Assembly: GCA_041658885.1 (NCBI GenBank) | Contig: JBAZZJ010000001.1 | Coordinates: 14,779 to 78,778, forward strand | Length of the DNA: 64,000 nt | From: Minisyncoccota bacterium | GTDB lineage: Bacteria; Patescibacteriota; Minisyncoccia; Phycocordibacterales; 21-14-all-36-13 | Reading direction: 5' to 3' | In this document: positions 5,547 through 52,931 of the stretch, one piece after another | How the letters are laid out: every line of letters begins with the position of its first letter | How positions within the stretch are numbered: the stretch's first letter is position 1 | The notes under the pieces: generated by a model | Seen by the model: the letters and a program-made list of their open reading frames with translations, nothing else | Told to the model about the DNA's origin: nothing | The model's database searches: none | Program-made: the position numbers and the translations under genes

Positions 5547-5679
5547 ATGAATCCCCACACTAATCTTAATTTCGTTTAAAAACGGGTTAGTTTATAAAAT
5601 AGAGTAAGTGGCGGATTTTAATGTAAATAAAGAAATAGACTAGGTCAATATTATTAAAATTAAGATTAGTGTAGGGATG
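5547..5679 (+). repeat. Start-codon hairpin element, arms ATCCCCACACTAATCTTAATT / AATTAAGATTAGTGTAGGGAT
   Basis: 20/21 inverted repeat 5551-5571 / 5658-5678, flanked by ATGAA (5547) and ATGAA (5677, the gene start); TGGTAAAAT box 8 nt before 5547. Confidence 0.8.
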
Positions 5680-6834: not shown

Positions 6835-6873
6835 TCTGCGTAGATCTGCGTTTTTATTTGAGATAATCTGCGT
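6834..6873 (-). repeat. Cluster of three ATCTGCGT octamers (reverse complement of ACGCAGAT)
   Basis: Copies at 6834, 6844 and 6866; the first abuts the stop codon of the upstream CDS. Confidence 0.7.
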
Positions 6874-10958: not shown

Positions 10959-11445
10959 CACAAATAACACAAATAACACAAATAACACAGCGTGGAGTAA
11001 TTTTTTTACCCTAATATTAGTTTTATTCATGATATTAAGTTTTATTGGACTTGTTGATACGACTTATCTAACAATACAACATTTGGAAAACGGTAGCGTT
11101 ATATGTTTGATAATTCAAGGGTGTGATTTAGTATTAACAAGTGAATATTCAAAAATATTTGGTATTCCACTAGCTCTTTTGGGTGCCCTTTATTACTTTT
11201 TGATTTTTTCTCTTTCTGTTTTTTGTTTTAAAAAAAGAAAAGAAAATACTTTTAAATTTTTGTCTTTTTTTACAACAATAGGATTTGTTATATCTGTTTG
11301 GCTTGTTTATCTACAACTTTTTGTAATTAAATCTATTTGTAGTTATTGTATGGTTTCAGCTTTCACGTCCATTTCTTTGTTTATTTTTGGACTTATATTT
11401 TTAATAAATTTGAGAAAAAAGAATGGCAACCTTAGAAAACTTTAG
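10948..11445 (+). CDS. VKOR (vitamin K epoxide reductase) family membrane protein
   Basis: Four TM segments, loop Cys pair (VICLIIQGCD), S-x-YS, and CSYC active-site CxxC. Confidence 0.65.
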   Translation: MENNTNNTNNTNNTAWSNFFTLILVLFMILSFIGLVDTTYLTIQHLENGSVICLIIQGCDLVLTSEYSKIFGIPLALLGALYYFLIFSLSVFCFKKRKENTFKFLSFFTTIGFVISVWLVYLQLFVIKSICSYCMVSAFTSISLFIFGLIFLINLRKKNGNLRKL

Positions 11446-12097
11446 AAAAAGAAAAAACAGAGTTATTACAATAGCCAGAACTCTAAATAAAATATTTCAC
11501 GACGGAAGAGGAACTTCTTTGGGCTATAAAAATAATTGGGAATTGTTGGTCTCGGTTATTTTGTCTGCCCAATGTACGGACGAGAGAGTAAATATGGTTA
11601 CCAAAAAATTGTTCAAGAAATATAAAAAATTAGATGATTATATTAATGCCAAGAAATCAAAATTTGAAAAAGATATAAAATCTACTGGATTTTACAAAAA
11701 CAAAACAAACAATATTTTATCGGCGGCAAAAATGGTAAAAAAAGAGTTCAAGAGCAAAATCCCTGATAAGATGGAAGACTTAATAAAAATTCCGGGTGTT
11801 GGAAGAAAAACTGCCAATGTAATATTGAGTAATGTTTTTAATAAAACTGAAGGGATAGTTGTAGACACTCATGTTAGGAGGTTATCAATTAAATTTGGTC
11901 TAACTAACAACAAAAGTCCAGAAAAAATTGAGAAAGATTTGATGAATATTTTACCAAAGAAATATTGGAAAGATTTTTCTTTTAAACTTGTAAGATATGG
12001 TCAAGAAATATGTGGGGCTAGAAAGCACGATTGTAAAAATCATCCTTTAACAAAGATATATACAAAAGCAAATAAAATTTGGCCAAGGGCAAAATGA
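11423..12097 (+). CDS. nth: Endonuclease III (DNA glycosylase/AP lyase)
   Basis: HhH-GPD motif IPGVGRKTANVIL, catalytic-region conservation, C-terminal Cys residues. Confidence 0.85.
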   Translation: MATLENFRKRKNRVITIARTLNKIFHDGRGTSLGYKNNWELLVSVILSAQCTDERVNMVTKKLFKKYKKLDDYINAKKSKFEKDIKSTGFYKNKTNNILSAAKMVKKEFKSKIPDKMEDLIKIPGVGRKTANVILSNVFNKTEGIVVDTHVRRLSIKFGLTNNKSPEKIEKDLMNILPKKYWKDFSFKLVRYGQEICGARKHDCKNHPLTKIYTKANKIWPRAK

Positions 12098-12159
12098 ACG
12101 CAGATTCACCCCGCCAAAGGCGGGGTAAACGCAGATAAAAATTGCAGATTAACGCAGAT
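12097..12159 (+). repeat. AACGCAGAT x3 cluster around the minimal hairpin TCACCCCGCC-AAA-GGCGGGGTA
   Basis: AACGCAGAT at 12097, 12128 and 12151; 7-bp GC stem 12109-12115/12119-12125; overlaps the nth stop codon. Confidence 0.75.
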
Positions 12160-12419
12160 GAAATAAGTGGATATTAGGTTTCTTGTTTTTTTGTTTTGGT
12201 GTAAACTATATAGGTAATCAAAATTGTATGAAGAAATTTATAACTGACAGACCTACAAGAATCGCGTTTTTATCGGGGTTCTTTAGCGTTGTTATAACCC
12301 TATTTAATATACTATTGAAAAAATAGTCTAATTTTAAGCAATTTTGTGCTTTTAATACCTATTTTTTGATAAAAATGCCTTTTAATTTAAAAAGGACTCT
12401 TGTGGTATAATTAAACATT

Positions 12420-14354: not shown

Positions 14355-15056
14355 ATGGAACCCCAAATAATTCCAGCAATAATTCCGGAAAGTTTTGAAC
14401 ACCTAAAAACAGAATTAGGGCTTGTTAAAAATTTTGTCCCGCTAGTTCAAGTTGATATCACAGATGGAATTTTTGCACCAACGATAACGTGGCCCTTCGA
14501 CTCCGCTCAGGACAAGCCTCTTTTAGACGAGCATTTTGGAAAAATGGTCAGACAAGAAGAAGGGATGCCTTTTTGGCAAGATTTAAATTTTGAAATGGAT
14601 TTAATGATACAAAATCCAGAAGAGATGATTGATAAATGGATAAACATAGGCGCAAGTGCTTTGATTATTCATATAGAAAGCACAAACGAAATAGAAAAAA
14701 TAATACAAAAAATAAAAGATATGAATATAGAGGTCGGGGTTTCTTTAAATCCAAGTACTCCAAATAGCAAACTGGATTTAATTTTAGATAAAATAAATTT
14801 TGTTCAATTTATGGGTAACGACAGAATCGGTTATCATGGAGTTGAGTTAGACGAAAGAGTGTATAAAAAAATAAAAGAATTAAGAAATAAAAATTCTCAA
14901 ATGCCAATAGCTATAGATATAGGCGTTAATGAGGAGACGGTTACACCACTTGTTAAAGCCGGAGTAACAAAACTTATTTCAGGGTCAACAATTTTAAATT
15001 CGGATAATATTAAAGAAAAAATAGATGAATTGAAAAATCTATCTTTAAATATTTAA
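14355..15056 (+). CDS. rpe: Ribulose-phosphate 3-epimerase-like TIM-barrel protein
   Basis: IIPAI...VQVDITDGIFAP resembles the Rpe N-terminal motifs; pentose-phosphate context; divergent loop carrying a GC-rich patch. Confidence 0.55.
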   Translation: MEPQIIPAIIPESFEHLKTELGLVKNFVPLVQVDITDGIFAPTITWPFDSAQDKPLLDEHFGKMVRQEEGMPFWQDLNFEMDLMIQNPEEMIDKWINIGASALIIHIESTNEIEKIIQKIKDMNIEVGVSLNPSTPNSKLDLILDKINFVQFMGNDRIGYHGVELDERVYKKIKELRNKNSQMPIAIDIGVNEETVTPLVKAGVTKLISGSTILNSDNIKEKIDELKNLSLNI

Positions 15057-15059
15057 ATT

Positions 15060-15190
15060 ATGGATCCCGTTAGAAATAAAAAGAGATAGTATATAGAAAA
15101 TAACCATCAAATATAAAAAGGTCAACAAATTAAAAATTAATTAAATAAATCGCGGAAATGCCTTCGGCAATCCCGATTTCTAACGGGATG
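15060..15190 (+). repeat. Start-codon hairpin element (family A), arms ATCCCGTTAGAAAT / ATTTCTAACGGGAT
   Basis: 14/14 inverted repeat 15064-15077 / 15176-15189, flanked by ATGGA (15060) and ATGGA (15188, the tkt start). Confidence 0.85.
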
Positions 15191-16030
15191 GAATTAAATG
15201 AGAAAAAAATATTTGAATTAAAAAAAATCGCGAAAGAGGTTCGTAAAACAATTATAAAATCTCTCGTTTCAGCTGGTTCTGGACATACTGGAGGGCCACT
15301 TGGTATGGCTGATATATTTACTGCGTTTTATTTTTATATATTAAAACATAACCCAAAGGAACCACTTTGGTCCGAAAGAGATATATTAATTTTATCAAAT
15401 GGGCACATTGTTCCTGCGAGGTATTCAGCAATGGCGCACGCTGGTTATTTTTCAGTTGAGGAGTTTGAAAATGGGTTAAGAAAATTTGGAACGGTTTTTC
15501 AAGGTCATCCAGATAGAAAATTTTTACCATCGATGGAAACTACGTCTGGTCCTTTAGGTTGTGGCCTTGGGCAGGCAAGTGGAATTGCGCTTGGAGCAAA
15601 AATGGATGGAAAAAGTTTTTATACTTATTGCATAATGTCTGACGGAGAACATCAAGAAGGAAACCTCTGGGAATCGGTTATGTTTGCCGGAAAATATAAA
15701 ATAGATAATCTAACGGGAATTATAGACAGAAATAATATTCAAATAACTGGTAACACAGAAAATATAATGCCCTTGGAATCGTTGAGAAGTAAATATGAAG
15801 CATTTAATTGGAATGTGATTGAAGTTGACGGACACGATTTTGTAAAATTTATTGAGGCAATTGAAATGGCAAAAGTTTCTCGTGGCAAACCAACAGTAAT
15901 TATTGCCCACACAATTCCGGGAAAGGGAGTAAAAGAAATTGAAAACGATTACAAATGGCACGGAATTGCACCGAATAGAGAGCAAGGTGAGAGGTTTTTA
16001 AAAGAATTAGAAGAAACCCCAGTTAAATAA
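15188..16030 (+). CDS. Transketolase, N-terminal (TPP-binding) subunit
   Basis: GHTGGPLGMADI and SDGEHQEGNLWE motifs; start moved to 15188 (MELNEKK) because the upstream 10 codons translate the repeat arm. Confidence 0.85.
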   Translation: MELNEKKIFELKKIAKEVRKTIIKSLVSAGSGHTGGPLGMADIFTAFYFYILKHNPKEPLWSERDILILSNGHIVPARYSAMAHAGYFSVEEFENGLRKFGTVFQGHPDRKFLPSMETTSGPLGCGLGQASGIALGAKMDGKSFYTYCIMSDGEHQEGNLWESVMFAGKYKIDNLTGIIDRNNIQITGNTENIMPLESLRSKYEAFNWNVIEVDGHDFVKFIEAIEMAKVSRGKPTVIIAHTIPGKGVKEIENDYKWHGIAPNREQGERFLKELEETPVK

Positions 16031-16157
16031 TTTTAAATAAAAAAGATTAGAATGTTGTATATTTGTATAAAAATGGAAATAAAAAAGATTTATATTAATA
16101 ATAAGATAATTTAAAATTAAAATTTGAGAAATACTCAAATTTTATTTAACAGGGTAA

Positions 16158-17159
16158 ATGTTAAATAAGACAAAAAAATTGAATTTAAAACTTTTTGACG
16201 CGGATGTAGAAAAAAAACCTATCCGTGATGGATTTGGTCAAGGCCTTGTTGAAGTTGGAGCAAGAAACAGAAAAGTTGTAGTACTATCTGCCGATTTATC
16301 CGAATCACTCAGAATGAATTCATTTAAAGAAAAATTTCCAGACAGATATTTTGAAGTTGGGGTTGCAGAACAAAGTTTAGCGACGATTGGTTCCGGACTT
16401 GCTTATTATGGAAAGATTCCTTTTATAGGGTCTTTTGCGACGTTTAGCCCCGGAAGAAATTGGGAACAAATAAGAACGACAATTGCTCTTAATAATGTTC
16501 CTGTAAAAATAATTGGTTCTCACGCTGGAGTTGCTGTTGGTGAAGATGGAGCAACGCATCAATCACTTGAAGACATTGCTCTCACGCGAGTTTTACCAAA
16601 CATGACAATCATAGCTCCTTGTGATTATGAAGAAGCAAGAAAAGCCGTGTATGAAATTGTCACACACGAGAAACCCGTTTATATGAGATTTGATAGAAGC
16701 AAAGTTCCGGCCATTACTACAGAAAGCTCTCCTTTTAAAATAGGAAAGGCTGAAATTTTATGGGAATCAAATAATCCAAAAGTTGTAATCATTGCTATTG
16801 GTTATTTAGTTCACAACGCTCTTCTTTGTGCTAAAGAATTAGAAAAAGAGGGAATAGAGGTTTTAGTTGTTAATAATCATACAATTAAACCAATGGATGA
16901 GGAATTAATTTTGGGGGTCGTAAAAAGAACCGAAGCAGTTGTCACGGTTGAAGATCATCAGATTGCAGGAGGTATGGGCTCTGCAGTTGCAGAATTTTTG
17001 GCAAAAACATATCCAGTACCAATTGAATTTATTGGAATAAATAATAAATTTGGACAATCAGGCACTCCGGCTGAATTAATTAAACACTATGGGCTTGATG
17101 TTGAATCAATAAAAAAAGCAGTTACAAAAGTAATTAAGAGGAATAAAAATTGTCGTTAG
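16158..17159 (+). CDS. Transketolase, C-terminal (pyrimidine-binding) subunit
   Basis: FEVGVAEQSLATIGSGLA motif; follows the N-terminal subunit. Confidence 0.85.
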   Translation: MLNKTKKLNLKLFDADVEKKPIRDGFGQGLVEVGARNRKVVVLSADLSESLRMNSFKEKFPDRYFEVGVAEQSLATIGSGLAYYGKIPFIGSFATFSPGRNWEQIRTTIALNNVPVKIIGSHAGVAVGEDGATHQSLEDIALTRVLPNMTIIAPCDYEEARKAVYEIVTHEKPVYMRFDRSKVPAITTESSPFKIGKAEILWESNNPKVVIIAIGYLVHNALLCAKELEKEGIEVLVVNNHTIKPMDEELILGVVKRTEAVVTVEDHQIAGGMGSAVAEFLAKTYPVPIEFIGINNKFGQSGTPAELIKHYGLDVESIKKAVTKVIKRNKNCR

Positions 17160-18554: not shown

Positions 18555-19439
18555 ATGAAATCTTTAAGAGAAATAATAGAAGAAGCAGAAAAAAGAGGCG
18601 TAGCAATCGGACATTTTAATATCTCAAATATTGAGGGGCTACACGCTGTTTTTAACGCATCTAAAAAACTTAACTCGCCGGTAATAATTGGAGTTTCAGA
18701 AGGTGAAAGAGATTTTATTGGTATAAAACAAGTCGTAGCACTTGTAAAAAGTTTGAGAGAGGAAAATGATTATCCTATTTTTTTGAATGCCGACCACACA
18801 TATTCATTTGAAAGAGCTAAAGAAGTAGTAGATGCAGGTTTTGATTCCGTGATTTTTGATGGAGCAAAATTAAGTACTGAAGAAAATATAAAAATAACAA
18901 AACAATGTGTTGAATATGCTAAAAAAATTAATCCAGAAATTTTAGTTGAAGCAGAGCTCGGATTTATAGGTTCATCATCAAAAATTTTAGATAAAATACC
19001 AGAAAATGTAAATTTAGACAAAGACTCACTCACCAAGCCGGAAGAAGCGAAAGAATTTGTCAAACAAACAGGAATTGATTTGTTTGCTCCAGCAGTTGGA
19101 AATATTCATGGAATGTTAGGACTTGGGAAAGACCCATCTTTAAATATAGAACTTATAAAAAAAATAAGAAAAGAAGCGGGAGTACCACTGGTTCTTCATG
19201 GTGGTTCTGGAACAAGCGACGAAGATTTTAAAAAGGCAATAAAAGCAGGAATTTCAATAATTCATATAAATACAGAATTAAGAGTTGCTTATAAAAACGC
19301 GGTTCAATTATCACTTCAAGAAAACCCAGACGAAATAGCCCCATATAAAATAATGAAGGGCGTTGTGTTGGCAATGGAAAAAGTTGTTGAGGAAAAACTC
19401 AAACTATTTAACTTTCAAGACACAAATGAACGCAGATAA
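18555..19439 (+). CDS. fba: Class II fructose-bisphosphate aldolase
   Basis: NADH(T)... and VLHGGSGTSDEDF motifs; last codons and the stop lie inside repeat 19429-19521. Confidence 0.85.
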   Translation: MKSLREIIEEAEKRGVAIGHFNISNIEGLHAVFNASKKLNSPVIIGVSEGERDFIGIKQVVALVKSLREENDYPIFLNADHTYSFERAKEVVDAGFDSVIFDGAKLSTEENIKITKQCVEYAKKINPEILVEAELGFIGSSSKILDKIPENVNLDKDSLTKPEEAKEFVKQTGIDLFAPAVGNIHGMLGLGKDPSLNIELIKKIRKEAGVPLVLHGGSGTSDEDFKKAIKAGISIIHINTELRVAYKNAVQLSLQENPDEIAPYKIMKGVVLAMEKVVEEKLKLFNFQDTNERR

Positions 19440-19521
19440 AAAATCGCAGATTCACCCCGTTAAATCCTGCGAAGCAGGAATTTTGCCAAAGGCAAAATTA
19501 TTTAACAGGGTAAACGCAGAT
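19429..19521 (+). repeat. 93-nt three-stem palindromic element (family B)
   Basis: 92/93 identical to 26731-26823. Outer stem TTCACCCCGTTAAAT/ATTTAACAGGGTAAA, hairpins CCTGC-GAA-GCAGG and TTTTGCC-AAA-GGCAAAA, flanked by AACGCAGAT. Confidence 0.9.
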
Positions 19522-22549: not shown

Positions 22550-22567
22550 ATGTTATATAATATAAAT

Positions 22568-22697
22568 ATGGATCCCGTTAGAAATAAAACACGGGACAAG
22601 CAGATAAAAACAAATAGAATGTGAACGATAGTATCAAACAAAAATTATAAATTAACTCACGGAAATGCTTTTGGCAATTCCGATTTCTAACGGGATG
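22568..22697 (+). repeat. Start-codon hairpin element (family A), arms ATCCCGTTAGAAAT / ATTTCTAACGGGAT
   Basis: 14/14 inverted repeat 22572-22585 / 22683-22696; ATGGA at 22568 (6 nt after TATAAT 22556-22561) and ATGAA at 22695 (the prfA start). Confidence 0.85.
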
Positions 22698-25984: not shown

Positions 25985-26014
25985 TTCACATATACGCCAT
26001 GGCGTATATGTGAA
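25985..26014. promoter_or_regulatory. 30-bp perfect palindrome TTCACATATACGCCATGGCGTATATGTGAA just upstream of TATAAT 26021-26026
   Basis: Self-complementary by inspection; shares the 20-bp core ATATACGCCATGGCGTATAT with 26416-26445. Confidence 0.7.
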
Positions 26015-26033
26015 TTTTGGTATAATAACCGTA

Positions 26034-26408
26034 ATGAATAATTCAAAACGGTTAAAATATAAAGGATTAAGGGTAAATATGATTGGATTACCTGTTTCTG
26101 ATAATTACATAAAGGATAAAAAAGAAAAAAAGTATATCAGGAGAGAATATCTTTCCTCGTTTATTTCTGAATCAAAAGGAAATGATCCGAAAAGTCTTCT
26201 TCTCATATATGATATTCCACATACCATGAAAAGGGAAAGAGACTGGCTTCGTCGTCAGTTGCTAACTCTTAATTTTATTTTGATACAAAAAAGTGTTTGG
26301 GTAGGACCATTTCCGTTACCAAAATACTTTACTGATTACCTAAAAGAAATTGGTTTGAAAGATAAGTTTAAAATATTAAAGTTAGACAAACCATACGAAG
26401 AAAATTAA
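26034..26408 (+). CDS. Small protein with a Cas2-like/PaaX-middle-domain-like ferredoxin-fold motif
   Basis: LLLIYDIPHTMKRERDWLRRQLLTLNFILIQKSVWVG resembles the Cas2 YDI...R..L...GF...Q.SVF pattern; ATG lies 7 nt after TATAAT. Confidence 0.5.
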   Translation: MNNSKRLKYKGLRVNMIGLPVSDNYIKDKKEKKYIRREYLSSFISESKGNDPKSLLLIYDIPHTMKRERDWLRRQLLTLNFILIQKSVWVGPFPLPKYFTDYLKEIGLKDKFKILKLDKPYEEN

Positions 26409-26415
26409 ATTAACA

Positions 26416-26445
26416 TTTCAATATACGCCATGGCGTATATTGAAA
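26416..26445. repeat. 30-bp perfect palindrome TTTCAATATACGCCATGGCGTATATTGAAA (terminator and/or second operator)
   Basis: Self-complementary; 8 nt after the stop codon. Confidence 0.7.
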
Positions 26446-26517: not shown

Positions 26518-27405
26518 ATGGCAGAACAAGATAAAAACAAAGAAAAAGGACATTATCATCCTATCACAATAACAATGTTTAAAATCGGCAAGATTTTTGA
26601 CGATTTAGGTTTTGAAATTGCAGATGGACCACATATAGAGGATGAATATCATAATTTTGATGCACTTAATATTCCCGCGGACCATCCGGCACGAGATATG
26701 TGGGATACCTTTTGGTTAAAGACGCAAATTAACGCAGATAAAAAACCGCAGATTCACCCCGTTAAATCCTGCGAAGCAGGAATTTTGCCAAAGGCAAAAT
26801 TATTTAACAGGGTAAACGCAGATAAAAATACCAACACAAGTCCGCGTGAATTTCCGCGTGAGTCTGCGATGTTATTAAGAACACACACTTCTCCGGTACA
26901 GATTAGATATATGGAAAATAATAAACCACCTATAAAAATTATTGTCCCTGGGAAGATTTTTAGATATGAAGCAACAGATGCAACACACGAGGCACAATTT
27001 TATCAATTGGAAGGACTTATGATTACTCCAAATACTTCACTTGCAACTCTTAAGGGGGTTTTAAAAGATTTTTTAGAAAAATTTTTTGAAGAAAAAATTG
27101 ATATCCGTTTTCGCCCGAGTTATTTTCCATTCGTTGAGCCAGGCCTGGAAGTTGATGCAACCTGTTTTAAATGTTCAGAAAAAATAAATCCAAGTTGTCC
27201 GATATGTAAAGGAACTGGGTGGATAGAAATAATGGGTGCGGGGATGGTTCATCCAAAAGTTTTAGAGAATTGTGGTATTAATCCACAAGAGTGGCAGGGT
27301 TTTGCCTTTGGTGTCGGGATAGATCGTCTAGTTATGCTCAAATACGAAATTCCAGATATAAGAATGCTTTATTCTGGGGATTTGAGATTGATAAATCAAT
27401 TTTAA
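26518..27405 (+). CDS. pheS: Phenylalanine--tRNA ligase alpha subunit, carrying an in-frame repeat insertion
   Basis: HPARDMWDTFW, LLRTHTSPVQ and FRPSYFPFVEPG motifs. Confidence 0.9.
   Translation: MAEQDKNKEKGHYHPITITMFKIGKIFDDLGFEIADGPHIEDEYHNFDALNIPADHPARDMWDTFWLKTQINADKKPQIHPVKSCEAGILPKAKLFNRVNADKNTNTSPREFPRESAMLLRTHTSPVQIRYMENNKPPIKIIVPGKIFRYEATDATHEAQFYQLEGLMITPNTSLATLKGVLKDFLEKFFEEKIDIRFRPSYFPFVEPGLEVDATCFKCSEKINPSCPICKGTGWIEIMGAGMVHPKVLENCGINPQEWQGFAFGVGIDRLVMLKYEIPDIRMLYSGDLRLINQF
26731..26823 (+). repeat. 93-nt family B element in frame within pheS (31 codons)
   Basis: 92/93 identical to 19429-19521; read through as NADKKPQIHPVKSCEAGILPKAKLFNRVNAD. Confidence 0.9.
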
Positions 27406-27414
27406 AAAACAATC

Positions 27415-29817
27415 ATGCTTATTTCATATAAATGGCTTCAAGAATATTTTGATAAGCCTGCCCGCCAATTGGCAGGCGGGAAATTTCCAAAACCGGAAGA
27501 AATTAAAAATGCACTTACAATGCACTCTTATGAAGTTTCTGAAATTTTAAAAGACAAAGATGATTTTATTTTTGATGTAGATATTTTACCAAACAGAGCT
27601 CACGACTCACTTTCTTATTTTGGGATTGCGCGAGAAATTGGAATGCTTTTTGATTTAAAAACAAAATTTCCAGACTTAGATAAATTACAAGCAGACAAAA
27701 GTTTAAAATCATCAGATTTTTTAACTTTAAAAATTGAAAATCCAAATGAATGCAGACGAGCAACAAAACGACTTGTTGTCGATGTCAGAGTAAAAGAATC
27801 ACCAGATTGGCTTAAGGAAAAATTATCAAAATTTGGACAAAAATCTATAAATAACATTGTTGATGCAACAAATTTTGTAATGATGGAAACGGGGCAACCT
27901 GTTCATGCTTTTGATTTTGATAAATTAGCAACTGGGAAGAATGACAAAAAAAATATTTCAATAAAATTAGCAGAAAAAGCAGAACAAATAACAACACTTG
28001 ATGAAAATCATTATGTTCTAGATGAAAATGTCTTAGTAATTCACGATGGAGAAAAACCGCTTGATATAGCTGGAATAAAAGGAGGAATAGACACTGGAAT
28101 AGATGAAAAGACAAAAAAAATTGTTTTATCAGTTTGTAGTTTTAATCCTAAGAGCATAAGAAGAACTTCTAAAAAATTAGGATTACAAACAGAAGCATCA
28201 AAAAGATTTGAAGCAGATGTAAGTTCTGAATTGGTTTACACAGCTATGCAAAGATTATCCCAACTTGTTTCAGAATTGTCTGGTGGAAAAGTGAGCGAAG
28301 AAATTTTGGACGAATATCCAAGAAAATCAAATCCATACAAAATAGGAATTTCAATTGATGAGGTTAATAAAATTTTAGGGACCGAGATAAGAGAAAAAGA
28401 ATTTGAAAAAATTTTAGACAAACTCGGATTTGAATATAAAAAAATAAAACCACTTAATGAAATTAAAAAATTAATTTCACAAGTTGAAGGCAAGCCTTAC
28501 AAATTTGGTTCAAGTGTAAGTTTTGATGCACCAAATTATTTTGATTGCTCGTCCTTAACCGCGTATTTGTTTGCACAGGCTGGGATTCAAATTCCAAGAG
28601 TTTCAGTTGACCAATACGTTTTTGGAAAAGAAATTTCTGAAAATGAAGCAAAATTTGGTGACATAGTATTTTTAAATACGAGGAATGGAAAAATTCATTA
28701 TGAAACGGTAGATTTTATAAAAGGAACAAAAGTTAAGGAGGGGGTTGACCATTGCGGTTTATGTTTAGGTGATGGAAAGGTTTTGCATACATCAAGATTT
28801 AATGGAAATAAGGTTGATATTCAAAACATAGAAAATAATCTATCTTTTAAAACAATTGTTGGTTATAGAAGATTTACAGACAATGAAGAAAGATATGTTT
28901 TAACAATCCCTTATTACAGAAATGACTTAAGAATTAAAGAAGATTTAGTTGAAGAAATTGGAAGAATTTTTGGTTATGAAAATGTTTCTTACGATTTACC
29001 AAAAAAGGATTCTGAAGCAAAAAAAGATAAAATATTTTATTATTCAAATTTAATAAAGAACTTTTTTGTAAGCGAAGGATTTTCAGAGGTCTACAATTAC
29101 GCGTTTGTTAACGAAGGAGAAATTGAGTTATTAAATCCTTTGGCAAGCGATAAAAAATATTTGAGAGATACTACAAAAAAACAATTAAGAAATAGTATAT
29201 TTTTTAATTATAAGCATTCTGACATTCTGGCTCTTAATGAGATTAAAATTTTTGAAATTGATAAAATTTATAAGAGAGAAAAAGAAACTCTCTGTTTATC
29301 TTTCGGTATAAAATTCAAAAAAGAAAACCTAAAGGAATATTTGTTCAATATTAAAGAAAAGTTGAGAAAAATACTGAATAAAGAAGAATTTGATCATACG
29401 GAGTATGGTGAATTTTATGATGAAGTAATTTTCGAAATTGATATAGATAAATTAATTGAAAAACTTCCAGAAGTTAATTCATACGAAAAATTATTTAAAG
29501 AATTTTCTGAAAATTATAAAGACACAAATAAGAAGTATAAAAACATTTCTCAATACCCATTTGTCTTGAGAGACATTGCAGTTTGGGTTCCTATAAAAAC
29601 AGAAAGTGGGGAAGTGTTAGCGTTAATAAAACAAAATTCTGGTGAATTGCTTATGCAAAGTAAATTATTTGATGAATATAAAAAAGATAACAAGGTTTCA
29701 TACGCGTTTCGGTTGGTTTTTCAATCACAGGACAAGACCTTAACAGACGATGAGGTAAATGAAGTGATGAAAAAAATAGAAAACAAAATAATTAAAAAGG
29801 GGTGGGAAGTTAGGTAA
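27415..29817 (+). CDS. pheT: Phenylalanine--tRNA ligase beta subunit with an inserted NlpC/P60-like domain
   Basis: B3/4 motif DATNFVMMETGQPVHAFD, B5, RNDLRIKEDLVEEIGRIFGYENV and the FDX-ACB C-terminus; insertion ~28450-28885. Confidence 0.9.
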   Translation: MLISYKWLQEYFDKPARQLAGGKFPKPEEIKNALTMHSYEVSEILKDKDDFIFDVDILPNRAHDSLSYFGIAREIGMLFDLKTKFPDLDKLQADKSLKSSDFLTLKIENPNECRRATKRLVVDVRVKESPDWLKEKLSKFGQKSINNIVDATNFVMMETGQPVHAFDFDKLATGKNDKKNISIKLAEKAEQITTLDENHYVLDENVLVIHDGEKPLDIAGIKGGIDTGIDEKTKKIVLSVCSFNPKSIRRTSKKLGLQTEASKRFEADVSSELVYTAMQRLSQLVSELSGGKVSEEILDEYPRKSNPYKIGISIDEVNKILGTEIREKEFEKILDKLGFEYKKIKPLNEIKKLISQVEGKPYKFGSSVSFDAPNYFDCSSLTAYLFAQAGIQIPRVSVDQYVFGKEISENEAKFGDIVFLNTRNGKIHYETVDFIKGTKVKEGVDHCGLCLGDGKVLHTSRFNGNKVDIQNIENNLSFKTIVGYRRFTDNEERYVLTIPYYRNDLRIKEDLVEEIGRIFGYENVSYDLPKKDSEAKKDKIFYYSNLIKNFFVSEGFSEVYNYAFVNEGEIELLNPLASDKKYLRDTTKKQLRNSIFFNYKHSDILALNEIKIFEIDKIYKREKETLCLSFGIKFKKENLKEYLFNIKEKLRKILNKEEFDHTEYGEFYDEVIFEIDIDKLIEKLPEVNSYEKLFKEFSENYKDTNKKYKNISQYPFVLRDIAVWVPIKTESGEVLALIKQNSGELLMQSKLFDEYKKDNKVSYAFRLVFQSQDKTLTDDEVNEVMKKIENKIIKKGWEVR

Positions 29818-29892: not shown

Positions 29893-29956
29893 TCCCGTTA
29901 AATGCGAAGCATATTTAACTGGGATGGATTTAAATGCCCCAGTGGGGCATTTAAAT
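29893..29956 (+). repeat. Two adjacent hairpins upstream of gyrB (family B-like TCCCGTTAAAT... arm, then a perfect 13-bp stem)
   Basis: 29893-29924 bulged hairpin with a GCGAAGC tip; 29928-29956 ATTTAAATGCCCC-AGT-GGGGCATTTAAAT. Confidence 0.65.
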
Positions 29957-30025
29957 TTATGCACACAAATAGCAAAAACCCCTTTATTTTGAAAGGAATT
30001 TTTGCTATAATACACATGTCGCTGA

Positions 30026-32158
<2,133 letters not shown>

Positions 32159-32162
32159 TTTA

Positions 32163-32193
32163 TTTCAAATCTAAAATCTAATATCTCAAATTT
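32163..32193 (+). repeat. Short dispersed repeat TCAAATCTAAAATCTAATATCTCAAAT
   Basis: 27-nt identity with the reverse complement of 52890-52922; related permuted copy at 46738-46765. Confidence 0.7.
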
Positions 32194-32199
32194 ATAAAA

Positions 32200-32726: not shown

Positions 32727-32799
32727 TTTACCCTATTAAATCCTGTCTCGCCCGTACGGGCAAAGCAGGAATTTGCCGTCGGCAAATTATTTAACAGGG
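32727..32799 (+). repeat. Family B three-stem element (variant with nested GCCCGTACGGGC hairpin)
   Basis: TTTACCCTATTAAAT...ATTTAACAGGG outer arms; GGAAAAT present on both flanks. Confidence 0.75.
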
Positions 32800-32847
32800 C
32801 AGGAAAATACGAAAAAGAACTAAAGGGCATAAAATAATTGTTATTTT

Positions 32848-34119: not shown

Positions 34120-34172
34120 AAAAATAATTATTCAAACTTTTTAAAAAATCAAAAAATATTTTTATCTTTTCC

Positions 34173-34195
34173 CATTCTCTAATTCAATTGAATAG
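34173..34195 (+). promoter_or_regulatory. Shortened copy of the 31-nt repeat, directly upstream of a TGTATGAT -10-like box for the ArsR gene
   Basis: CATTCTCTAATT..ATTGAATAG shares both ends of the 34578/35747 repeat unit. Confidence 0.45.
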
Positions 34196-34262
34196 TTGTA
34201 TGATGGATTTTTAAGAGATATAATATATTTTTGAAATATTAGAAATTAAAAATATCAAAAAC

Positions 34263-34541: not shown

Positions 34542-34577
34542 TTTTTATTTTGATATTTTTCATGCCCCACAGGAAAC

Positions 34578-34714
34578 TATTTTCTAATTTAATTAAATAG
34601 TTGAATAGTGAAGTTTAGCGATTAAAAATGTATTTTCTAATTTAATTAAATAGTTGAATAGTGAAGTTTAGCGATGAAAAATGTATTTTCTAATTTAATT
34701 AAATGGTTGAATAG
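34578..34714 (+). repeat. Three direct 31-nt repeats TATTTTCTAATTTAATTAAAT(A/G)GTTGAATAG at 53-bp period
   Basis: Units 34578-34608, 34631-34661 and 34684-34714; intervening 22-mers nearly identical; core ATTTAATTAAAT is palindromic. Confidence 0.85.
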
Positions 34715-34833
34715 TTTTGGTATATAAAGAGATTATTGAATTTATAGAAAATTTGGTGTATTTTAAACTATGTAAGGTATAGAAAAACTTTATGAAAAAA
34801 GAAACTGATTCATAAATCTTTATATTTAAAATT

Positions 34834-35676
34834 ATGGCGCCAGATAAATACAAATCTATATGGGTATCACATTCTTCCATTGGAGATTTCTTAAAATGTC
34901 CACGGGCTTATTATCTGCATAATGTTTATAAAGACACCAAAACGGGAAGAAAAATAAATATTGTTAATCCTGCGCTTTCTCTTGGCCAAGCGGTGCATAC
35001 AATCCTTGAGTCATTAAAAAATGTTCCAGTTGAAGAAAGAATGAAACGAGATTTATTAGCTGATTTTGAAGTTGCTTGGTTACAAGTGTCTGGGAGAAAA
35101 GGTGGATTTAAAAATAGCGACGAAGAAGCCAAGATTAAAAAACGAGGCATTGAGATGATAAAACGAGTTATAAAAAATCCGGGACCGATTGCAAATAAAA
35201 CCATTAAAATAAAGCAAGGACATAATAATATGCCACCAAATTTTTACCTTTCTGAAGATGAAAATATAATACTTTGTGGGCTTGTTGATTGGTTGGAATA
35301 TATTGAAGAAGATGACAGCGTTCGTATTCTTGATTTTAAAACTGGCAAAAACGACGAAGCTGAAGATTCACTTCAACTCCCAATTTATCTCTTGCTTCTA
35401 AGTGCATTACAAAAACGAAAAATTTCTGGGGCGTCATATTGGTATCTTAATAAAGATGATAAACCAACAGAGATGACATTGCCCGATATTAATGAAGCTA
35501 AAGAAAAAGTACTCACGGTTGCTTTGAAAGTTAAAGAAGCCAGAGAAAAAGAAACTTTTAATTGTTCGCGCGGAGATAAAGGATGTTTTGCTTGTAAATC
35601 ATACGAATCTATTTTGAAAGGTGAGGCGGAATATATTGGTATTGGTGGCTATGGACAGGACATGTATTTTTTATAG
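34834..35676 (+). CDS. PD-(D/E)XK nuclease, Cas4/AddB-like with a four-Cys cluster
   Basis: N-terminal CPRAYYL, LVDW, ILDFKTG (D-x-K), QLPIY and C-terminal C-x6-C-x2-C. Confidence 0.75.
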   Translation: MAPDKYKSIWVSHSSIGDFLKCPRAYYLHNVYKDTKTGRKINIVNPALSLGQAVHTILESLKNVPVEERMKRDLLADFEVAWLQVSGRKGGFKNSDEEAKIKKRGIEMIKRVIKNPGPIANKTIKIKQGHNNMPPNFYLSEDENIILCGLVDWLEYIEEDDSVRILDFKTGKNDEAEDSLQLPIYLLLLSALQKRKISGASYWYLNKDDKPTEMTLPDINEAKEKVLTVALKVKEAREKETFNCSRGDKGCFACKSYESILKGEAEYIGIGGYGQDMYFL

Positions 35677-35746
35677 AAAATATTATTAATTTAAGCCATA
35701 TACCGTGTCCAAAACGTGCGTGACTTAACTATTCTCTCCAGGAAAC

Positions 35747-35876
35747 CATTCTCTAATTTAATTAAATAGTTGAATAGTGAAGTTTAGCGACGAAAAATGT
35801 ATTTTCTAATTTAATTAAATAGTTGAATAGTTTCATTTCCATATGTATTTTCTAATTTAATTAAATGGTTGAATAG
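35747..35876 (+). repeat. Second block of three copies of the same 31-nt repeat
   Basis: Units 35747-35777, 35800-35830 and 35846-35876; first spacer matches the upstream block; upstream CAGGAAAC homology also shared. Confidence 0.85.
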
Positions 35877-36006
35877 TTCAATATAAAACAAATAGTGTTT
35901 TTAGGGAATTTTGAGAATTTGGAGGATTATTCAAATTTTTTCAAAAAATTTTTAAAAAGTTTTCTAAAATGGTAGAATATAAATAGAGGTTTAGCTAAAT
36001 AAAGAT

Positions 36007-42402: not shown

Positions 42403-42990
42403 TTTTTAAAAAAATCTATCCCGTTAAATAAAAGAGCCGGGGGTTCAGAGTACCCCGGCTTGTTAAATAATCTCTATGTTGAGGTGAGTTATTTAACTGA
42501 CAAACTCATAATAAATACATTCATAAAAAATCTCCCTTTGCCGATCTTTACCTGTGGGGATATGGAGCATGTACCTCACTGAGTTATAGTACTATGTCCA
42601 CAAATAATAATATCATAAATCAAGGAAAATAAAAAAAAGCGCAGATTACGTCTGCGCTTTTGCTTCTTCATCGTATGAATCTCTCTCCAATTAAAAACTG
42701 GGAGATGTTCAGCTCTTTTTATCTTAAATGAACTCCCGTTAGGGTTATTTATAATTTAGCATGTCTTTTTAAAAAAGCAATAAAAGGGGACAACTTTTGA
42801 TTGTCCCCTTAAAAAGATGCCTAAGAAGAGGTTACTTGTTCCTACAACAAGCCCTCGTTTTCGCTTTAGCAAATTTTTCATTTAGTTCCTCCAATTTTTA
42901 AGAAAAGGAACTTTTACTGGTTCTCTAAAGAACCAATGTTATTCTAATATAAAATATTTTTTTTTGCAATAAATTTATTGTATAATTCAT

Positions 42991-43045
42991 CCTGTGGAAT
43001 ATGATGCTTTAGCATCATAAAACCTAAAGGTTTTTATTTCACGGG
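42991..43045 (+). repeat. 55-nt three-stem element immediately 5' of leuS (homolog of 50284-50341)
   Basis: Outer stem CCTGTGGAAT/ATTTCACGGG (two G-U), hairpins ATGATGC-TTT-AGCATCAT and AAAACC-TAA-AGGTTTT; TATAAT 42981-42986 just upstream. Confidence 0.75.
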
Positions 43046-43055: not shown

Positions 43056-45563
43056 ATGAAAAAGTACGACCATTCCAAAATAGAGAGTAAGTGGCCCCGA
43101 AAGAAACTTTCTGTGTCTAAAGACACAGGTTTCTTACGGGGTAAACAGAAAAACTATGATCACAAAAAGATAGAGAGTAAATGGTCTAAGGTGTGGGAAG
43201 AAGGTAAAATCTACAATACAAAAGAAGACAAAAATAAACAGAAATTTTATGTCCTAATCGAATTCCCATATGCCTCAGGAGAAGGATTACATGTAGGGCA
43301 CGTGAGAAGTTATACTGCGCTTGATATTGTTGCGCGAAAAAAGAGAATGGAGGGATTTAATGTTTTATATCCAATAGGGTGGGATGCTTTTGGTTTGCCA
43401 ACAGAAAATTATGCGATTAAAACTGGAATAAATCCAAAAATAATAACTAAAAAAAATACTGACAATTTTAGAAAGCAATTAAAGGCACTTGGCTTTTCTT
43501 TTGATTGGTCTCGCGAAATTAATACATCATCTCCCGAATATTACAAATGGACCCAATGGATTTTTTTACAATTTTTTAAACATGGGCTTGCATACAAAAA
43601 AAGAATGCCAATCAATTGGTGTTTGAGTTGTAAAATTGGTCTAGCAAATGAAGAAGTTGTTAATAGTGTGTGTGAAAGATGTGGAGGACAGGTTGAGAAA
43701 AGAGAAAAGGAACAATGGATGTTAGCAATAACAAAATATGCCGACAGACTTTATGATGATTTGGACAAAACGGAATTTTTGGAAAAAATAAAAATTCAAC
43801 AGAGAAATTGGATAGGCAAGAGTCACGGAACAGAAATAGATTTTAAAATAGAAAACTCGGATAAGATAATTTCTGTTTTTACAACTCGTGTAGATACAAT
43901 TTTTTCAGGGACATTTCTTGTGATAGCACCAGAACATGATTTGGTAGAAAAAATTACAAAAGAAGAATACAGAGAAAAAGTATTTGAATATAGAAAAAAT
44001 GCATCAAAAATTTCACAAATAGATAGAATGTCAGAAGAAAGAGAAAAAACGGGTGTCTTTACTGGTTCATATGCGATAAATCCAGCAACTGATGAAAAAA
44101 TGCCAATATGGATTGCAGATTTTGTTTTAGTTGACTACGGAACGGGTGTCGTTTTTGCTGATGCTCATGATGAAAGAGATTTTGAAATGGCTAAAAAGTT
44201 CGGTATACCATTAAAAGTTTCTTTAAGACCTAATGACGATAAATTATGGGAAGAAGTAAAAAATTTAAGAAAATGTTTTACAGAAGAAGGAACTCTTATA
44301 AATTCTGCCCAATTTGATGGAATGTCTTCAGCAGAAGCTCGTCCAAAAATTACGGAATGGTTAGGGGGAAAAGGTGTAGCTCGTTTTAAAACAACCTATA
44401 AATTACGCGATTGGATTTTTTCAAGACAAAGATATTGGGGAGAACCTATTCCACTTGTTTTCTGTGAAAAATGTGCTTGGGTTCCTATTCCAGAAGACCA
44501 ACTTCCTGTTGAGCTTCCAGATGTTAAAAAATATGAACCGACTGATTCTGGAGAATCACCACTTGCCTCGCTTGAAAAATGGGTAAATGTTAAATGTCCA
44601 AAATGTGGTGGTTCAGCAAAAAGAGAGACAGACACAATGCCGAATTGGGCTGGCTCCTCTTGGTATTGGTTAAGATACACCGACCCCAAAAATGATAAGG
44701 TTTTTGCAGATAAAAAGAAATTGAAATATTGGACTCCAGTAGATTGGTATAACGGAGGAATGGAACACACGACTCTTCATTTACTTTACTCTCGTTTTTG
44801 GCATAAGTTTTTATTTGATATTGGTTTGGTTCCAACTGACGAGCCTTATGTAAAAAGAACATCACATGGAATGATTCTTGGCGATGGAGGAGAGAAGATG
44901 TCAAAGTCCAGAGGAAATGTAATTAATCCCGATGACATAATTGAAAGATTTGGAGCAGATTCGTTTAGATTGTATGAAATGTTTTTAGGTCCATTTGATC
45001 AACAAACAAGTTGGAATTCTGACGGAGTTGTCGGAACGAGAAGATTTATTGAAAAAGTTTGGGGATTATCTGAAAAAATAAATGAAAAAGGTGATGCTAA
45101 CAAAGAAATAGATAATTTTTTAAACAAGACAATTAAAAAAGTTGGTGAAGATATTGAAAATATTAAATTTAATACGGCAGTGAGCTCTATGATGATGTTT
45201 TTAAATTTTGTTTATGATAAAAATACAATTTCAAAAGATTCTTATAAAAAGTTTTTGAAAATTCTTTCGCCTTTTGCTCCGCATATTACGGAAGAGCTTT
45301 GGCAAGAAATTGGAGAAAAAAAATCTGTTCATTTTGAAGCATGGCCTTCTATTGGAGAAATATTTGAAGATGAAAATGTAAACATAATAGTTCAAATCAA
45401 TGGGAAAATGAGAGCCTCTTTTGAAATTAAAAATTTTTCAACAGAAGAAGAGATAAAAGAAAAAGCAGTCTCTCTTGAATCTGTATCAAAATGGATTAAC
45501 GGGGAAAAAATCAAAAAAATCATATATATAAAGGGGAAATTAGTTAACATTGTAACCATTTGA
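43056..45563 (+). CDS. leuS: Leucine--tRNA ligase (N-terminus carries an in-frame hairpin plus a duplicated motif)
   Basis: HVGH (HIGH) and KMSKS motifs, CP1 editing domain, 835 aa. Confidence 0.9.
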   Translation: MKKYDHSKIESKWPRKKLSVSKDTGFLRGKQKNYDHKKIESKWSKVWEEGKIYNTKEDKNKQKFYVLIEFPYASGEGLHVGHVRSYTALDIVARKKRMEGFNVLYPIGWDAFGLPTENYAIKTGINPKIITKKNTDNFRKQLKALGFSFDWSREINTSSPEYYKWTQWIFLQFFKHGLAYKKRMPINWCLSCKIGLANEEVVNSVCERCGGQVEKREKEQWMLAITKYADRLYDDLDKTEFLEKIKIQQRNWIGKSHGTEIDFKIENSDKIISVFTTRVDTIFSGTFLVIAPEHDLVEKITKEEYREKVFEYRKNASKISQIDRMSEEREKTGVFTGSYAINPATDEKMPIWIADFVLVDYGTGVVFADAHDERDFEMAKKFGIPLKVSLRPNDDKLWEEVKNLRKCFTEEGTLINSAQFDGMSSAEARPKITEWLGGKGVARFKTTYKLRDWIFSRQRYWGEPIPLVFCEKCAWVPIPEDQLPVELPDVKKYEPTDSGESPLASLEKWVNVKCPKCGGSAKRETDTMPNWAGSSWYWLRYTDPKNDKVFADKKKLKYWTPVDWYNGGMEHTTLHLLYSRFWHKFLFDIGLVPTDEPYVKRTSHGMILGDGGEKMSKSRGNVINPDDIIERFGADSFRLYEMFLGPFDQQTSWNSDGVVGTRRFIEKVWGLSEKINEKGDANKEIDNFLNKTIKKVGEDIENIKFNTAVSSMMMFLNFVYDKNTISKDSYKKFLKILSPFAPHITEELWQEIGEKKSVHFEAWPSIGEIFEDENVNIIVQINGKMRASFEIKNFSTEEEIKEKAVSLESVSKWINGEKIKKIIYIKGKLVNIVTI
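43095..43146 (+). repeat. Hairpin element CCCCGAAAGAAAC...GTTTCTTACGGGG-TAAAC inside the leuS coding sequence
   Basis: 12/13 outer stem, inner CTGTGTCT-AAA-GACACAG; ends in the GGGGTAAAC tail shared with family B. Confidence 0.75.
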
Positions 45564-46738: not shown

Positions 46739-46765
46739 TATCTCAAATCTAATATCTAAAATCTT
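46738..46765 (+). repeat. Permuted copy of the ATCTCAAATCTAA(T/A)ATCTAAAATCT short repeat
   Basis: Similarity to 32163-32193, directly after a stop codon. Confidence 0.5.
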
Positions 46766-46862
46766 AAAACAATAAATAAAATTTCAAGAAATACTCTTGA
46801 AATTTTATTTTTGTATACACAACAATCTATCACAACATGTTTTTTTGTTGTATCATATTACT

Positions 46863-49285: not shown

Positions 49286-49347
49286 TTTACCCTGTTAAAT
49301 AATTTGTTGAAGACAAATTCCTGCGAAGCAGGATTTAACAGGGTAAA
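49286..49347 (-). repeat. Family B element, opposite orientation, perfect 15-bp outer stem
   Basis: TTTACCCTGTTAAAT / ATTTAACAGGGTAAA 15/15; AATTTGT-TGAAG-ACAAATT; CCTGC-GAA-GCAGG; overlaps TATAAT 49281-49286. Confidence 0.85.
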
Positions 49348-52806: not shown

Positions 52807-52889
52807 TTTTCCCCACTTTTCAAACTATATCAGAATTTTTGTTATATAATTTAAGTTCACCCTATTAAATAATTTTAAGAATAATTTTT

Positions 52890-52922: not shown

Positions 52923-52931
52923 TAATTTAAA

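Follow-up and report, generated by a model that had tools for sequence, protein, structure and literature searches.

The 64,000-nucleotide (nt) stretch analysed here, referred to as the window, belongs to contig JBAZZJ010000001.1 of a Minisyncoccota bacterium and carries on its forward strand the gene pheS (26518-27405). The open reading frame (ORF), its PF01409 match, 8000 homologs and matches in the Protein Data Bank (PDB) identified its product as a short Patescibacteria-type PheS alpha subunit of 295 amino acids (aa), and the homologs assigned the ORF to a Patescibacteria/Parcubacteria bacterium. The gene pheT is located downstream (27415-29817), after a gap of 9 nt. Codons T69 to M118 of pheS (26722-26871, + strand) constitute an insert of 150 nt, or 50 aa, in place of the 18 nt (6 aa, PENSKL) of close orthologs that are empty at this site. 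It was delimited by protein alignment (alignment A1), the DNA of orthologs, PDB matches and the predicted local distance difference test (pLDDT). An earlier note on this DNA had described a 93-nt palindromic element at 26731-26823, and most of that description held. The segment matched 19429-19521 at 92 of 93 positions (0 matches in 100 shuffles), began 213 nt (71 codons) into the ORF, was open in the pheS frame, encoding NADKKPQIHPVKSCEAGILPKAKLFNRVNAD, and folded as an outer stem plus two hairpins with a minimum free energy (MFE) of −26.5 kcal/mol (z = −4.4, with none of 200 shuffles as stable). A dispersed palindromic repeat in frame in pheS was thereby confirmed, and the alignment of orthologs that the note had proposed showed close orthologs without the insert. 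The 93 nt had to be abandoned as the unit of insertion: they correspond to a 60-nt element (26754-26813) and to flanking CGCAGAT units of a second repeat, which extends to 26871.

In the protein, the insert separates the motifs HPARDMWDTFW and LLRTHTS, which the earlier note had described as only a few residues apart in E. coli and B. subtilis. The solved PheS structures 3pco (E. coli), 4p71 (P. aeruginosa) and 2rhq (S. haemolyticus) have only 0-2 residues between them, and the window protein aligned to these structures as residues 1-68/70 plus 116/118-295, with residues ~69-116 lacking a counterpart. AlphaFold2 gave a pLDDT of ~30 at residues 73-116, between two short strands, and of ~90 in the catalytic core; the insert is predicted to be a disordered surface loop of ~50 residues. 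Among the top 120 PheS homologs, the loop at this position measured 7-63 aa, with a mode of 10, and held several distinct classes of repeat-derived peptides. Similar xAD...R(E/K)SA peptides occupied it even in PheS proteins only 59-66% identical. The note had taken a homologous peptide from distant lineages, without the DNA palindrome, as the mark of an ancestral loop; the distant inserts, including those of xAD...RESA type, were still palindromic at the DNA level, being composed of lineage-specific units (MFE −29 to −39 kcal/mol). The loop of other lineages also contains KSEIRN...SEIQNSK peptides, which resemble a dispersed repeat of ATCTAAAATCT / ATATCTCAAAT-type units present in both orientations in the window (32157-32199, 46730-46769, 52885-52927), and the one KSEIRN-type insert examined (L151) consisted of A-rich tandem units around a GC-rich hairpin. 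In addition, PheS has a second length-polymorphic site, the zinc-knuckle loop (alignment A1, columns ~334-348), with extra residues such as LSTALKTG in P0002, P0003, P0006 and P0058; the window protein has none at the equivalent position, near CFKCSEKINPSCPICKG.

The insert is composed of two tiers. Tier 1 is a long palindrome of CGCAGAT/ATCTGCG-type units, and tier 2 is a 60-nt palindromic element forming a three-way junction, which is nested within the left arm of tier 1. The left arm (26722-26753, +), with the units ACGCAAAT, AACGCAGAT and CCGCAGAT, was recognised by its match to the tier-1-only allele of the relative L008, exact over the 38 nt from AAG 26719 to 26753. Tier 2 (26754-26813, +) was recognised by its absence from the L008 and L003 alleles, its fold, its family and covariation. 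Its layout is TCACCCCGTTAAAT / CCTGC-GAA-GCAGG / AATTTTGCC-AAA-GGCAAAATT / ATTTAACAGGGT, it encodes HPVKSCEAGILPKAKLFNRV, and with the flanking bases the palindrome covers 26753-26816. The remainder of tier 1 (26814-26871, +) contains one AACGCAGAT unit, a spacer and the right arm TCCGCGTGAATT, TCCGCGTGAGTC, TCTGCG, followed by the ATG codon. The 12-nt tandem TCCGCGTGAATT/TCCGCGTGAGTC that the note had located at 26841-26864 is thus tier 1's right arm in degenerate form. On the + strand, CGCAGAT was counted 10 times, with 1.7 occurrences expected. Tier 1 is intact in L008, where it reads ACGCAAAT-TA-ACGCAGAT-AAAAA-ACCGCAGAT-AA-ATGCAGAT ... ATCTGCGT-GAAA-ATCTGCGA-GA-ATCTGCG, its left side containing four direct units and its right side three exact inverse ones, and folds to a single long hairpin (−18.7 kcal/mol, z = −4.85). 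Tier 1 is the older repeat, and tier 2 is nested in it.

The DNA of pheS was compared with that of seven close relatives, in which the gene, leaving the insert aside, shows 81-87% identity to that of the window. The DTFW-RTHTS segment measures 57 nt in the empty alleles of L001 and L009 (K-PENSKL-LLRTHTS), 126 nt in L003 and L008, which have tier 1 only, and 138 nt in a further tier-1-type allele, that of L007. It reaches 165 nt in L006, where tier 1 is accompanied by a different, 39-nt hairpin at a base identical to the tier-2 site, 189 nt in the window, with the 60-nt element after CCGCAGAT, and 216 nt in L005, which has tier 1, tier 2 at the window's base and extra units. All these alleles differ by multiples of 3 and all are stop-free. 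The proteins P0007 and P0008 likewise read K-PENSKL-LLRTHTS, without insert, and the insert-free orthologs showed 84-88% protein identity over aligned positions and 81-84% DNA identity. It must be noted that L005 and L006 were identical across a 2146-column alignment except within the pheS insert. L005 and L063 carry tier 2 at the same base as the window, in pheS genes 86% identical to it; therefore, the copy in the window pheS need not be recent. The tier 2 of L005 differs from that of the window at 2 of 64 positions, in a gene that is 13.6% diverged (P = 0.005), and the insertion either predates the split from L005 and stayed homogeneous or arrived independently at the same base. The hairpin that fills the tier-2 site of L006 belongs to a third family, (T)AACCCCGATACCATAGAGCTATGCTCTGGCTACGGGGC, which gives rise to NP(D/S)T(I/T)ELCSGYGAG peptides and is also found in L011 (~1930-1990), after a tier-2 copy inside a HolB-like gene. 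Between pheS and pheT, L007 (1502-1777) and L008 (10872-11144) have a small ORF of 90-91 aa with a GIY-YIG domain, which may be a free-standing homing-endonuclease-like insertion.

Tier 2 measures 60-63 nt, and five copies of it, plus fragments, are present in the window. The second copy (19414-19521, +), supported by sequence match, ORF and Pfam analysis, is made up of part of a tier-1 left arm, the tier-2 element (19452-19511) and a single unit. It provides the final codons and the stop of a class II fructose-bisphosphate aldolase gene (18555-19439, ...FQDTNERR*), whose Pfam match ends at aa 288 of 294; the syntenic aldolase of L009 ends in KLFNNL* and lacks the element. The similarity between this copy and that of pheS covers 108 nt (19414-19521 and 26716-26823, 104 of 108 identical). 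The four mismatches are confined to the 37-nt left flank, and the 71 nt formed by tier 2 and the right unit are free of them (Fisher p = 0.012). This near-identity looks like the result of recent copying or gene conversion, and the note's idea of a recently mobile element has to be restricted accordingly, since the pheS copy itself, found at the same base in L005 and L063, need not be recent. A diverged copy (48130-48189, +), an exact 60-nt insertion in comparison with the empty ortholog in L152, lies in frame in the N-terminal tail of YceG/MltG (gene 48086-49141), at aa 15-36. Two copies are intergenic: one at 49287-49346 (−), found by sequence match, and one at 32727-32801 (+), with an extra hairpin, GCCCGTACGGGC, nested in its P2 loop. 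Upstream of the former are a shared terminator and a TATAAT sequence, both present in L152, there without the element. A solo right end of a tier-2-like element was located at 52838-52876 (−). Tier-1-type arrays were also detected at the stop codon of an Nth-like gene (array 12092-12160, +; gene 11423-12097) and, as three ATCTGCG units, immediately behind the stop codon of ORF 5677-6834 (6834-6872, −); in the former, the position CGCAGAT^...^AAACGCAGAT is likewise occupied, here by the short hairpin TCACCCCGCCAAAGGCGGGGT. The arrays at 6834, 12092 and 19429 are all on or just after stop codons. A simple terminator-like hairpin with a T run, GCGCAGATTACGTCTGCGC (42634-42662), has the same CGCAGA/TCTGCG core as the tier-1 units.

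The point of insertion of tier 2 can be read at two sites for which empty counterparts are available. In pheS, L008 reads ...CCGCAGAT^AAATGCAGAT... and the window ...CCGCAGAT-60 nt-AAACGCAGAT..., the junction in the L008 and L003 alleles being CCGCAGAT^AAAYGCAGAT. For YceG, the homolog search gave an ortholog, P0123, that is 85% identical and exactly 20 residues shorter. Its DNA (L152) reads ...TTAGACAAACT^AAGTAAAAAAG..., with the junction ACAAACT^AAGTAAAA, and the window ...TTAGACAAATT-60 nt-AAGCAAAAAGG.... At both sites, exactly 60 nt (TCACCC...GGGY) stand between T and AA, with no target duplication. Direct repeats of 7-9 nt at the flanks of some copies were considered as target-site duplications and rejected: in a scan of 54 copies they appeared only where the element lies within tandem-unit arrays (CGCAGAT in the window lineage, ATCAAT-type in another genome), and the empty sites showed no duplication. 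The YceG site is filled in the window and, at the identical base, in the KR11 lineage (69%), has a diverged 20-aa occupant in P0122 (86%) and is empty in P0123 (85%) and five others, so that its occupancy is discordant with phylogeny. An empty-site scan of the collected loci yielded only the pheS alleles and the near-identical contigs L116 and L081. In L116, a 39-nt tier-2-related hairpin is present exactly beside an existing tier-2 end, and the two contigs further differ by a substitution upstream, another in the P3 loop and a 27-nt indel. Altogether, this indicates site-precise gain and loss of elements on the timescale of strains. Another copy, in an RluA-like gene of L060 (6778-6853; contig labelled Gammaproteobacteria), directly follows the native ...LLVHP codons, and after it the 15 nt with which it begins (TTCACCCTGTTAAAT) appear once more, as a solo end or else as the trace of a microhomology-guided insertion.

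With regard to the distribution of tier 2, a strict core pattern matched one-genome-per-species contigs at 57 loci, of which ~52 are real copies and the others chance matches, and metagenomes at 81 loci; the metagenome loci that were retrieved did not include the genome of the window. The labelled real copies were almost all from Patescibacteria (Moranbacteria, Parcubacteria/Paceibacterota, Komeilibacteria, Doudnabacteria, Saccharibacteria and Minisyncoccia), and we suspect that the few labelled as other phyla are binning errors. Two genomes contained at least 11 and at least 20 loci, respectively. The pattern had 0 matches in viral contigs, which leaves a phage vector without support. In the collected loci, an nhmmer profile gave 172 distinct copies with 87 distinct sequences. 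The consensus is (T)TCACCCY GTTAAAT | CCTGC-NNN-GCAGG | AATTT-(variable stem-loop)-AAATT | ATTTAAC RGGGTGA(A), with terminal inverted repeats (T)TCACCCYGTTAAAT / ATTTAACRGGGTGA(A) of 14-15 pairs; helix 1 was 90.6% paired, and the element folds as a perfect three-way junction. In 32 distinct copies of 63 nt, 93.8% of the cells were paired and nine pairs changed on both sides, for instance in P3, with UA in 18 copies and CG in 14 (pair 34-44), CG in 18 and UA in 13, and GC in 29 and AU in 3. The covariation score of 0.136 compares with 0.082 for shuffles (0 of 500 reached it) and 0.03-0.08 for slid controls. P1 and P2 were near-invariant in sequence across classes, P3 being the stem that covaries. 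Both T.G and C.A mismatches were found at the same pair, thus neither strand is privileged. Additional hairpins are nested in the P2 and P3 loops, including a subfamily with a private nested hairpin that has at least nine copies in one genome, and copies stack head to tail and nest within one another. At the gathering score, Rfam recognised only tRNAs in the whole window, and a permissive scan of 26650-26920 gave only chance miRNA and snoRNA matches (E ≥ 1.2). No description of such palindromic elements in Patescibacteria was found in literature searches, and tier 2 appears to be an undescribed family of selfish palindromic repeats tolerated in frame, in the manner of the Rickettsia palindromic elements (RPEs), which the note had rightly named as the precedent.

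Among 109 non-redundant copies, 81 (~74%) were intergenic, 10 lay over the end of an ORF and 18 (~17%) were within ORFs. Since ORFs make up ~80% of the DNA, there is a strong deficit of copies inside genes. Each of the 18 copies within ORFs was in sense orientation and open in the frame of the host gene. Intergenic copies between co-directional genes were co-oriented in 15 cases and opposite in 11, which indicates that the element by itself favours neither orientation. In the canonical 63-nt form a single reading frame out of six is open, HPVKSCxAGIxxxxKLFNRV, stops being present in the other five; where P3 differs in length, a second sense frame becomes open, FTLLNPAxQEF.... The in-frame copies were found in the genes for PheS, SMC, Obg, a MiaB-MiaA fusion, HolB-like, RluA-like and NuoF/G-like proteins, a pilin leader and YceG, all of them intact ORFs whose products are unrelated and share no common function. 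Such a filter on frame and sense orientation is expected if the ribosome reads the insert and only non-disruptive insertions survive, and would not be expected of an insert that is bypassed or spliced out. In this regard, the frame and orientation statistics suggest that the pheS insert is probably translated with its host protein.

The nesting of the tiers, the family, the precise insertion without duplication, the filter on frame and orientation and the turnover between strains are established by these comparisons, and we consider it probable that the pheS insert represents non-autonomous palindromic repeats of two successive generations. Tier 1 would be a lineage-specific long palindrome of short CGC(A/G)GA(T/C) units accommodated in a naturally length-variable loop of PheS, and tier 2 would have inserted precisely at T^AA, with no target duplication, into its left arm. 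Tier 2 would persist mostly in intergenic DNA and, inside genes, only in sense orientation and open frame, such copies being presumably transcribed and translated along with the host protein. As mobiliser we would favour, as a guess, an enzyme of the IS200/IS605-RAYT type that acts in trans and recognises single-stranded DNA hairpins. The data resemble transposition of this kind more than cut-and-paste by a DDE (Asp-Asp-Glu catalytic triad) transposase, in view of the T^AA junction without duplication, the apparent precise loss, the conservation of structure and the tendency to land in or beside palindromes. Homologous recombination or gene conversion may aid the spread between existing arrays, and allelic exchange between strains probably contributes.

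Several points weigh against this interpretation. No transposase or mobilising gene was found in the window by Pfam (~50 ORFs), and there was no Y1_Tnp match. In ~1 Mb of loci no kilobase-scale element with tier-2 ends was seen, only orphan ends and a 140-nt relative, and the 228 ORFs within 400 nt of copies clustered as orthologous housekeeping genes, without a recurrent nuclease or transposase. The window offers only hints: a LAGLIDADG ORF, a PD-(D/E)XK/Cas4-like ORF and an IS30-type helix-turn-helix fragment (59862-60290), a 142-aa ORF with the HTH_38 domain only and no catalytic domain, which is the sole transposase-like remnant. Tier 1 replaces the PENSKL codons rather than being cleanly added, and could have originated by insertion, slippage expansion or allelic exchange. 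The 108-nt near-identity of the two window copies ends within tier-1 units, which gene conversion explains no less well than transposition does. A cellular function, and not selfishness, could underlie the strong conservation of sequence across classes. The copies within ORFs were recognised through ORFs that span them, and the statement that they are open in frame is therefore partly circular, the contrast in orientation with the intergenic copies being the independent part; translation itself is argued from frame statistics alone. Finally, these are metagenome assemblies, in which repeats can be misjoined, but the synteny with L009 and the repetition of the L005 allele in L063 argue against this.

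Among the alternatives, the most serious is that homologous recombination or gene conversion between CGCAGAT arrays, together with allelic exchange by natural transformation, distributed elements that may be immobile today. We regard this as possible, though clearly less probable than mobilisation of the repeats. The 108 shared nt start and end within tier-1 units, tier 2, which L005/L063 have at the same base as the window, is 62/64 identical at 86% gene identity, which suggests homogenisation, and no transposase was found in the window, near copies or as a long element with the same ends. Recombination between arrays does not account well for the 60-nt element at unique non-array sites (YceG, SMC, Obg, MiaB), with no flanking homology, nor for the private-hairpin subfamily amplified within one genome or for the confinement of the four window mismatches to the left flank. 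It is unlikely, in our opinion, that tier 2 is instead a functional structured motif used by the cell, such as a protein-binding site, a signal for mRNA stabilisation or processing or a small RNA. The near-invariance of P1 and P2 with covariation of P3, the mostly intergenic location of the copies, often just after genes or beside tRNA genes, and their absence from viral contigs would agree with such a role. However, intergenic copies lacked a strand preference (15 and 11), the T.G and C.A mismatches favoured neither strand, elements were present, absent or swapped at orthologous sites, copies stacked head to tail and nested in one another, no Rfam family matched, and the host genes were unrelated in function.

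The earlier note had left open whether the insert is tolerated as a surface loop or removed from the mRNA. It seems very improbable that the element goes untranslated, by intron-like removal from the pheS mRNA or by ribosome bypass. Its hairpin is stable (−26 kcal/mol), and palindromic inserts bypassed by the ribosome are known in yeast mitochondria. However, the length differences between pheS alleles are multiples of 3 and no allele contains a stop, and all 18 copies within ORFs are sense and open even though five of the six canonical frames hold stops. In addition, no intron or ribozyme model was matched (Rfam gave nothing at the gathering score and E = 1.2 at best), the junction lacks a conserved core of unpaired bases, and twenty residues are too few for an intein. 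Hardly any credence is left for an ancestral, lineage-specific PheS loop kept for protein function, whose resemblance to other loci would be secondary. It would explain the similar xAD...R(E/K)SA peptides in PheS only 59-66% identical, but orthologs at 84-88% protein identity lack the insert entirely, the inserts of distant orthologs remain palindromic in their DNA, with lineage-specific units, the same units and hairpin occur in intergenic DNA, and otherwise identical strains differ at the insert, in a loop predicted to be disordered. This last reading was rejected on the grounds of the insert-free close orthologs, the strain differences and the distant DNA palindromes.

The window contains other repeats, some of them related to tier 2, and further notable genes. 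A second family has ends, ATGGATCCCGTTAGAAAT ... ATTTCTAACGGGATG, related to those of tier 2 and an AT-rich interior of ~110 nt (2015-2051, 15045-15190, 22553-22697), and is located just upstream of or over the starts of the ORFs at 2148, 15158 and 22665, the last being RF-1/PCRF. Tier-2 copies of other loci directly adjoin its right end (..TCTAACGGGG), and the family gives rise to ..PVRN...ISNGV-type peptides. A 140-nt element (16017-16157), with tier-2-like ends (ACCCCAGTTAAAT ... ATTTAACAGGGT) and an AT-rich interior, fills the gap in a split transketolase, overlapping the stop of the N-terminal half (15158-16030) and the start of the half with the pyrimidine-binding and C-terminal parts (16158-17159). 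A mini relative with the outer stem only (TCCCGTTAAAT-GCGAAGC-ATATTTAACTGGGA), followed by the hairpin GGATTTAAATGCCCCAGTGGGGCATTTAAATTT, lies between pheT and gyrB (29893-29960). Directly upstream of pheS, the palindrome ATATACGCCATGGCGTATAT (25990-26026 and 26404-26440) stands at both sides of a PaaX_M ORF with a Cas2-like domain (26010-26408). Direct repeats of 53-93 nt (34172-34231, 34570-34715, 35739-35877) are found on both sides of the PD-(D/E)XK/Cas4-like ORF (34834-35676), a gene kept at a syntenic position in L003 and L008. A 73-nt repeat with a CATGATGCTTTAGCATCATAA-like hairpin (42968-43040 and 50262-50334, 77% identical) precedes leuS (43056-45563) and gyrA (50350-52806), and may be a shared leader or promoter element. 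Three tandem 120-nt repeats (63299-63731) lie among four tRNA genes (62293-62374, 63177-63249, 63733-63906), and the LAGLIDADG-domain ORF (62396-63028, −) is free-standing between two tRNA genes. In addition, a 585-aa ORF without Pfam match (3713-5470) includes four Cys-rich repeats, each ~82 nt long, as well as a 24-nt tandem array that codes for PPSGSY-like units (repeats at 3992-4775 and 5202-5373), and four consecutive paralogous genes for type IV secretion pilins (T4SS_pilin/TrbC) occupy 54766-56502.

The genomes of Patescibacteria are among the most streamlined bacterial ones, yet they have a conserved family of selfish hairpin repeats that write extra peptides into essential proteins and vary between otherwise identical strains. 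To our knowledge, almost nothing of the mobile-element biology of these bacteria has been described. For annotation, the peptides HPVKSCxAGI...KLFNRV, xADK...RESA and FTLLNPAxQEF must be considered repeat-derived and not domains; for binning and strain typing, the insert sites are hypervariable and repeat-prone. The exact, duplication-free insertion of 60 nt and the covarying hairpins point to a mobilisation that recognises structure. As a bolder extension, to which we give little weight, such hairpins might be Patescibacteria-wide cassettes that target other hairpins, insert and excise precisely by means of a conserved host-encoded enzyme, not a transposase of their own, and prefer the arms and loops of palindromes, so that surface loops of essential proteins such as PheS, SMC and Obg become hypervariable between strains and, beyond being tolerated, may serve phage or host evasion or regulation.

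Among the known systems, RPEs, described as ~150 bp long and forming ten families, with 44 copies in R. conorii and nearly half of cases in ORFs (PMC10969869), are the closest functional analogue of tier 2. Both are dispersed non-coding palindromes with no known transposase, tolerated in frame in unrelated housekeeping genes (PMC10969869). The likeness is one of description, homology in sequence not being expected: tier 2 occurs in Patescibacteria and not in Alphaproteobacteria, measures 60 nt and not ~150, forms a three-way junction with covarying hairpins, is nested in tandem-unit palindromes and has ~17% of its copies in ORFs. Bacterial miniature inverted-repeat transposable elements such as Correia, ERIC and Chunjie are multi-copy elements below 500 bp that have terminal inverted repeats, lie mostly between genes and form stable stem-loops in their transcripts (PMC10969869). 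Tier 2 is equally short, non-coding, multi-copy and mostly intergenic, with terminal inverted repeats of 15-16 nt, but two empty-site comparisons showed no target-site duplication and no parent insertion sequence with the same ends was found in the ~1 Mb of loci or among the neighbouring ORFs. The small dispersed repeats of cyanobacteria reported by Elhai and co-workers in 2008 are very small repeats that reportedly form hairpins, nest in each other or in other repeats and lie sometimes in genes; they differ from tier 2 in sequence, size and host. Bypassed inserts need be neither in frame nor stop-free, and it speaks indirectly against bypass that genic tier-2 copies occur only in such sense frames as are open. 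The REP/REPIN-RAYT system and the palindromes derived from IS200/IS605 are short, clustering, mainly extragenic hairpin repeats in which structure is conserved over sequence, and they insert beside a short target without duplication, with precise gain and loss. With REP/REPIN-RAYT, tier 2 shares the hairpins, the conservation of structure, the mainly extragenic location, the stacking, the duplication-free insertion and the gain and loss. It differs in that no Y1/HUH gene was seen in the window and no GTAG-type guide motif is evident, in being a 60-nt three-way junction with 15-nt terminal inverted repeats rather than an imperfect palindrome of 20-40 nt with a conserved 5' tetranucleotide, typically arranged in inverted doublets, and in its in-frame genic copies (~17%), which are not typical of REPs. 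Single-strand transposition of the IS200/IS605 type is characterised by hairpin ends, by precise excision and by duplication-free insertion 3' of a short specific target; what was observed of tier 2 in this respect is the absence of duplication, a recurrent ..T^AA.. junction and a presence and absence at the same base that are discordant with phylogeny.

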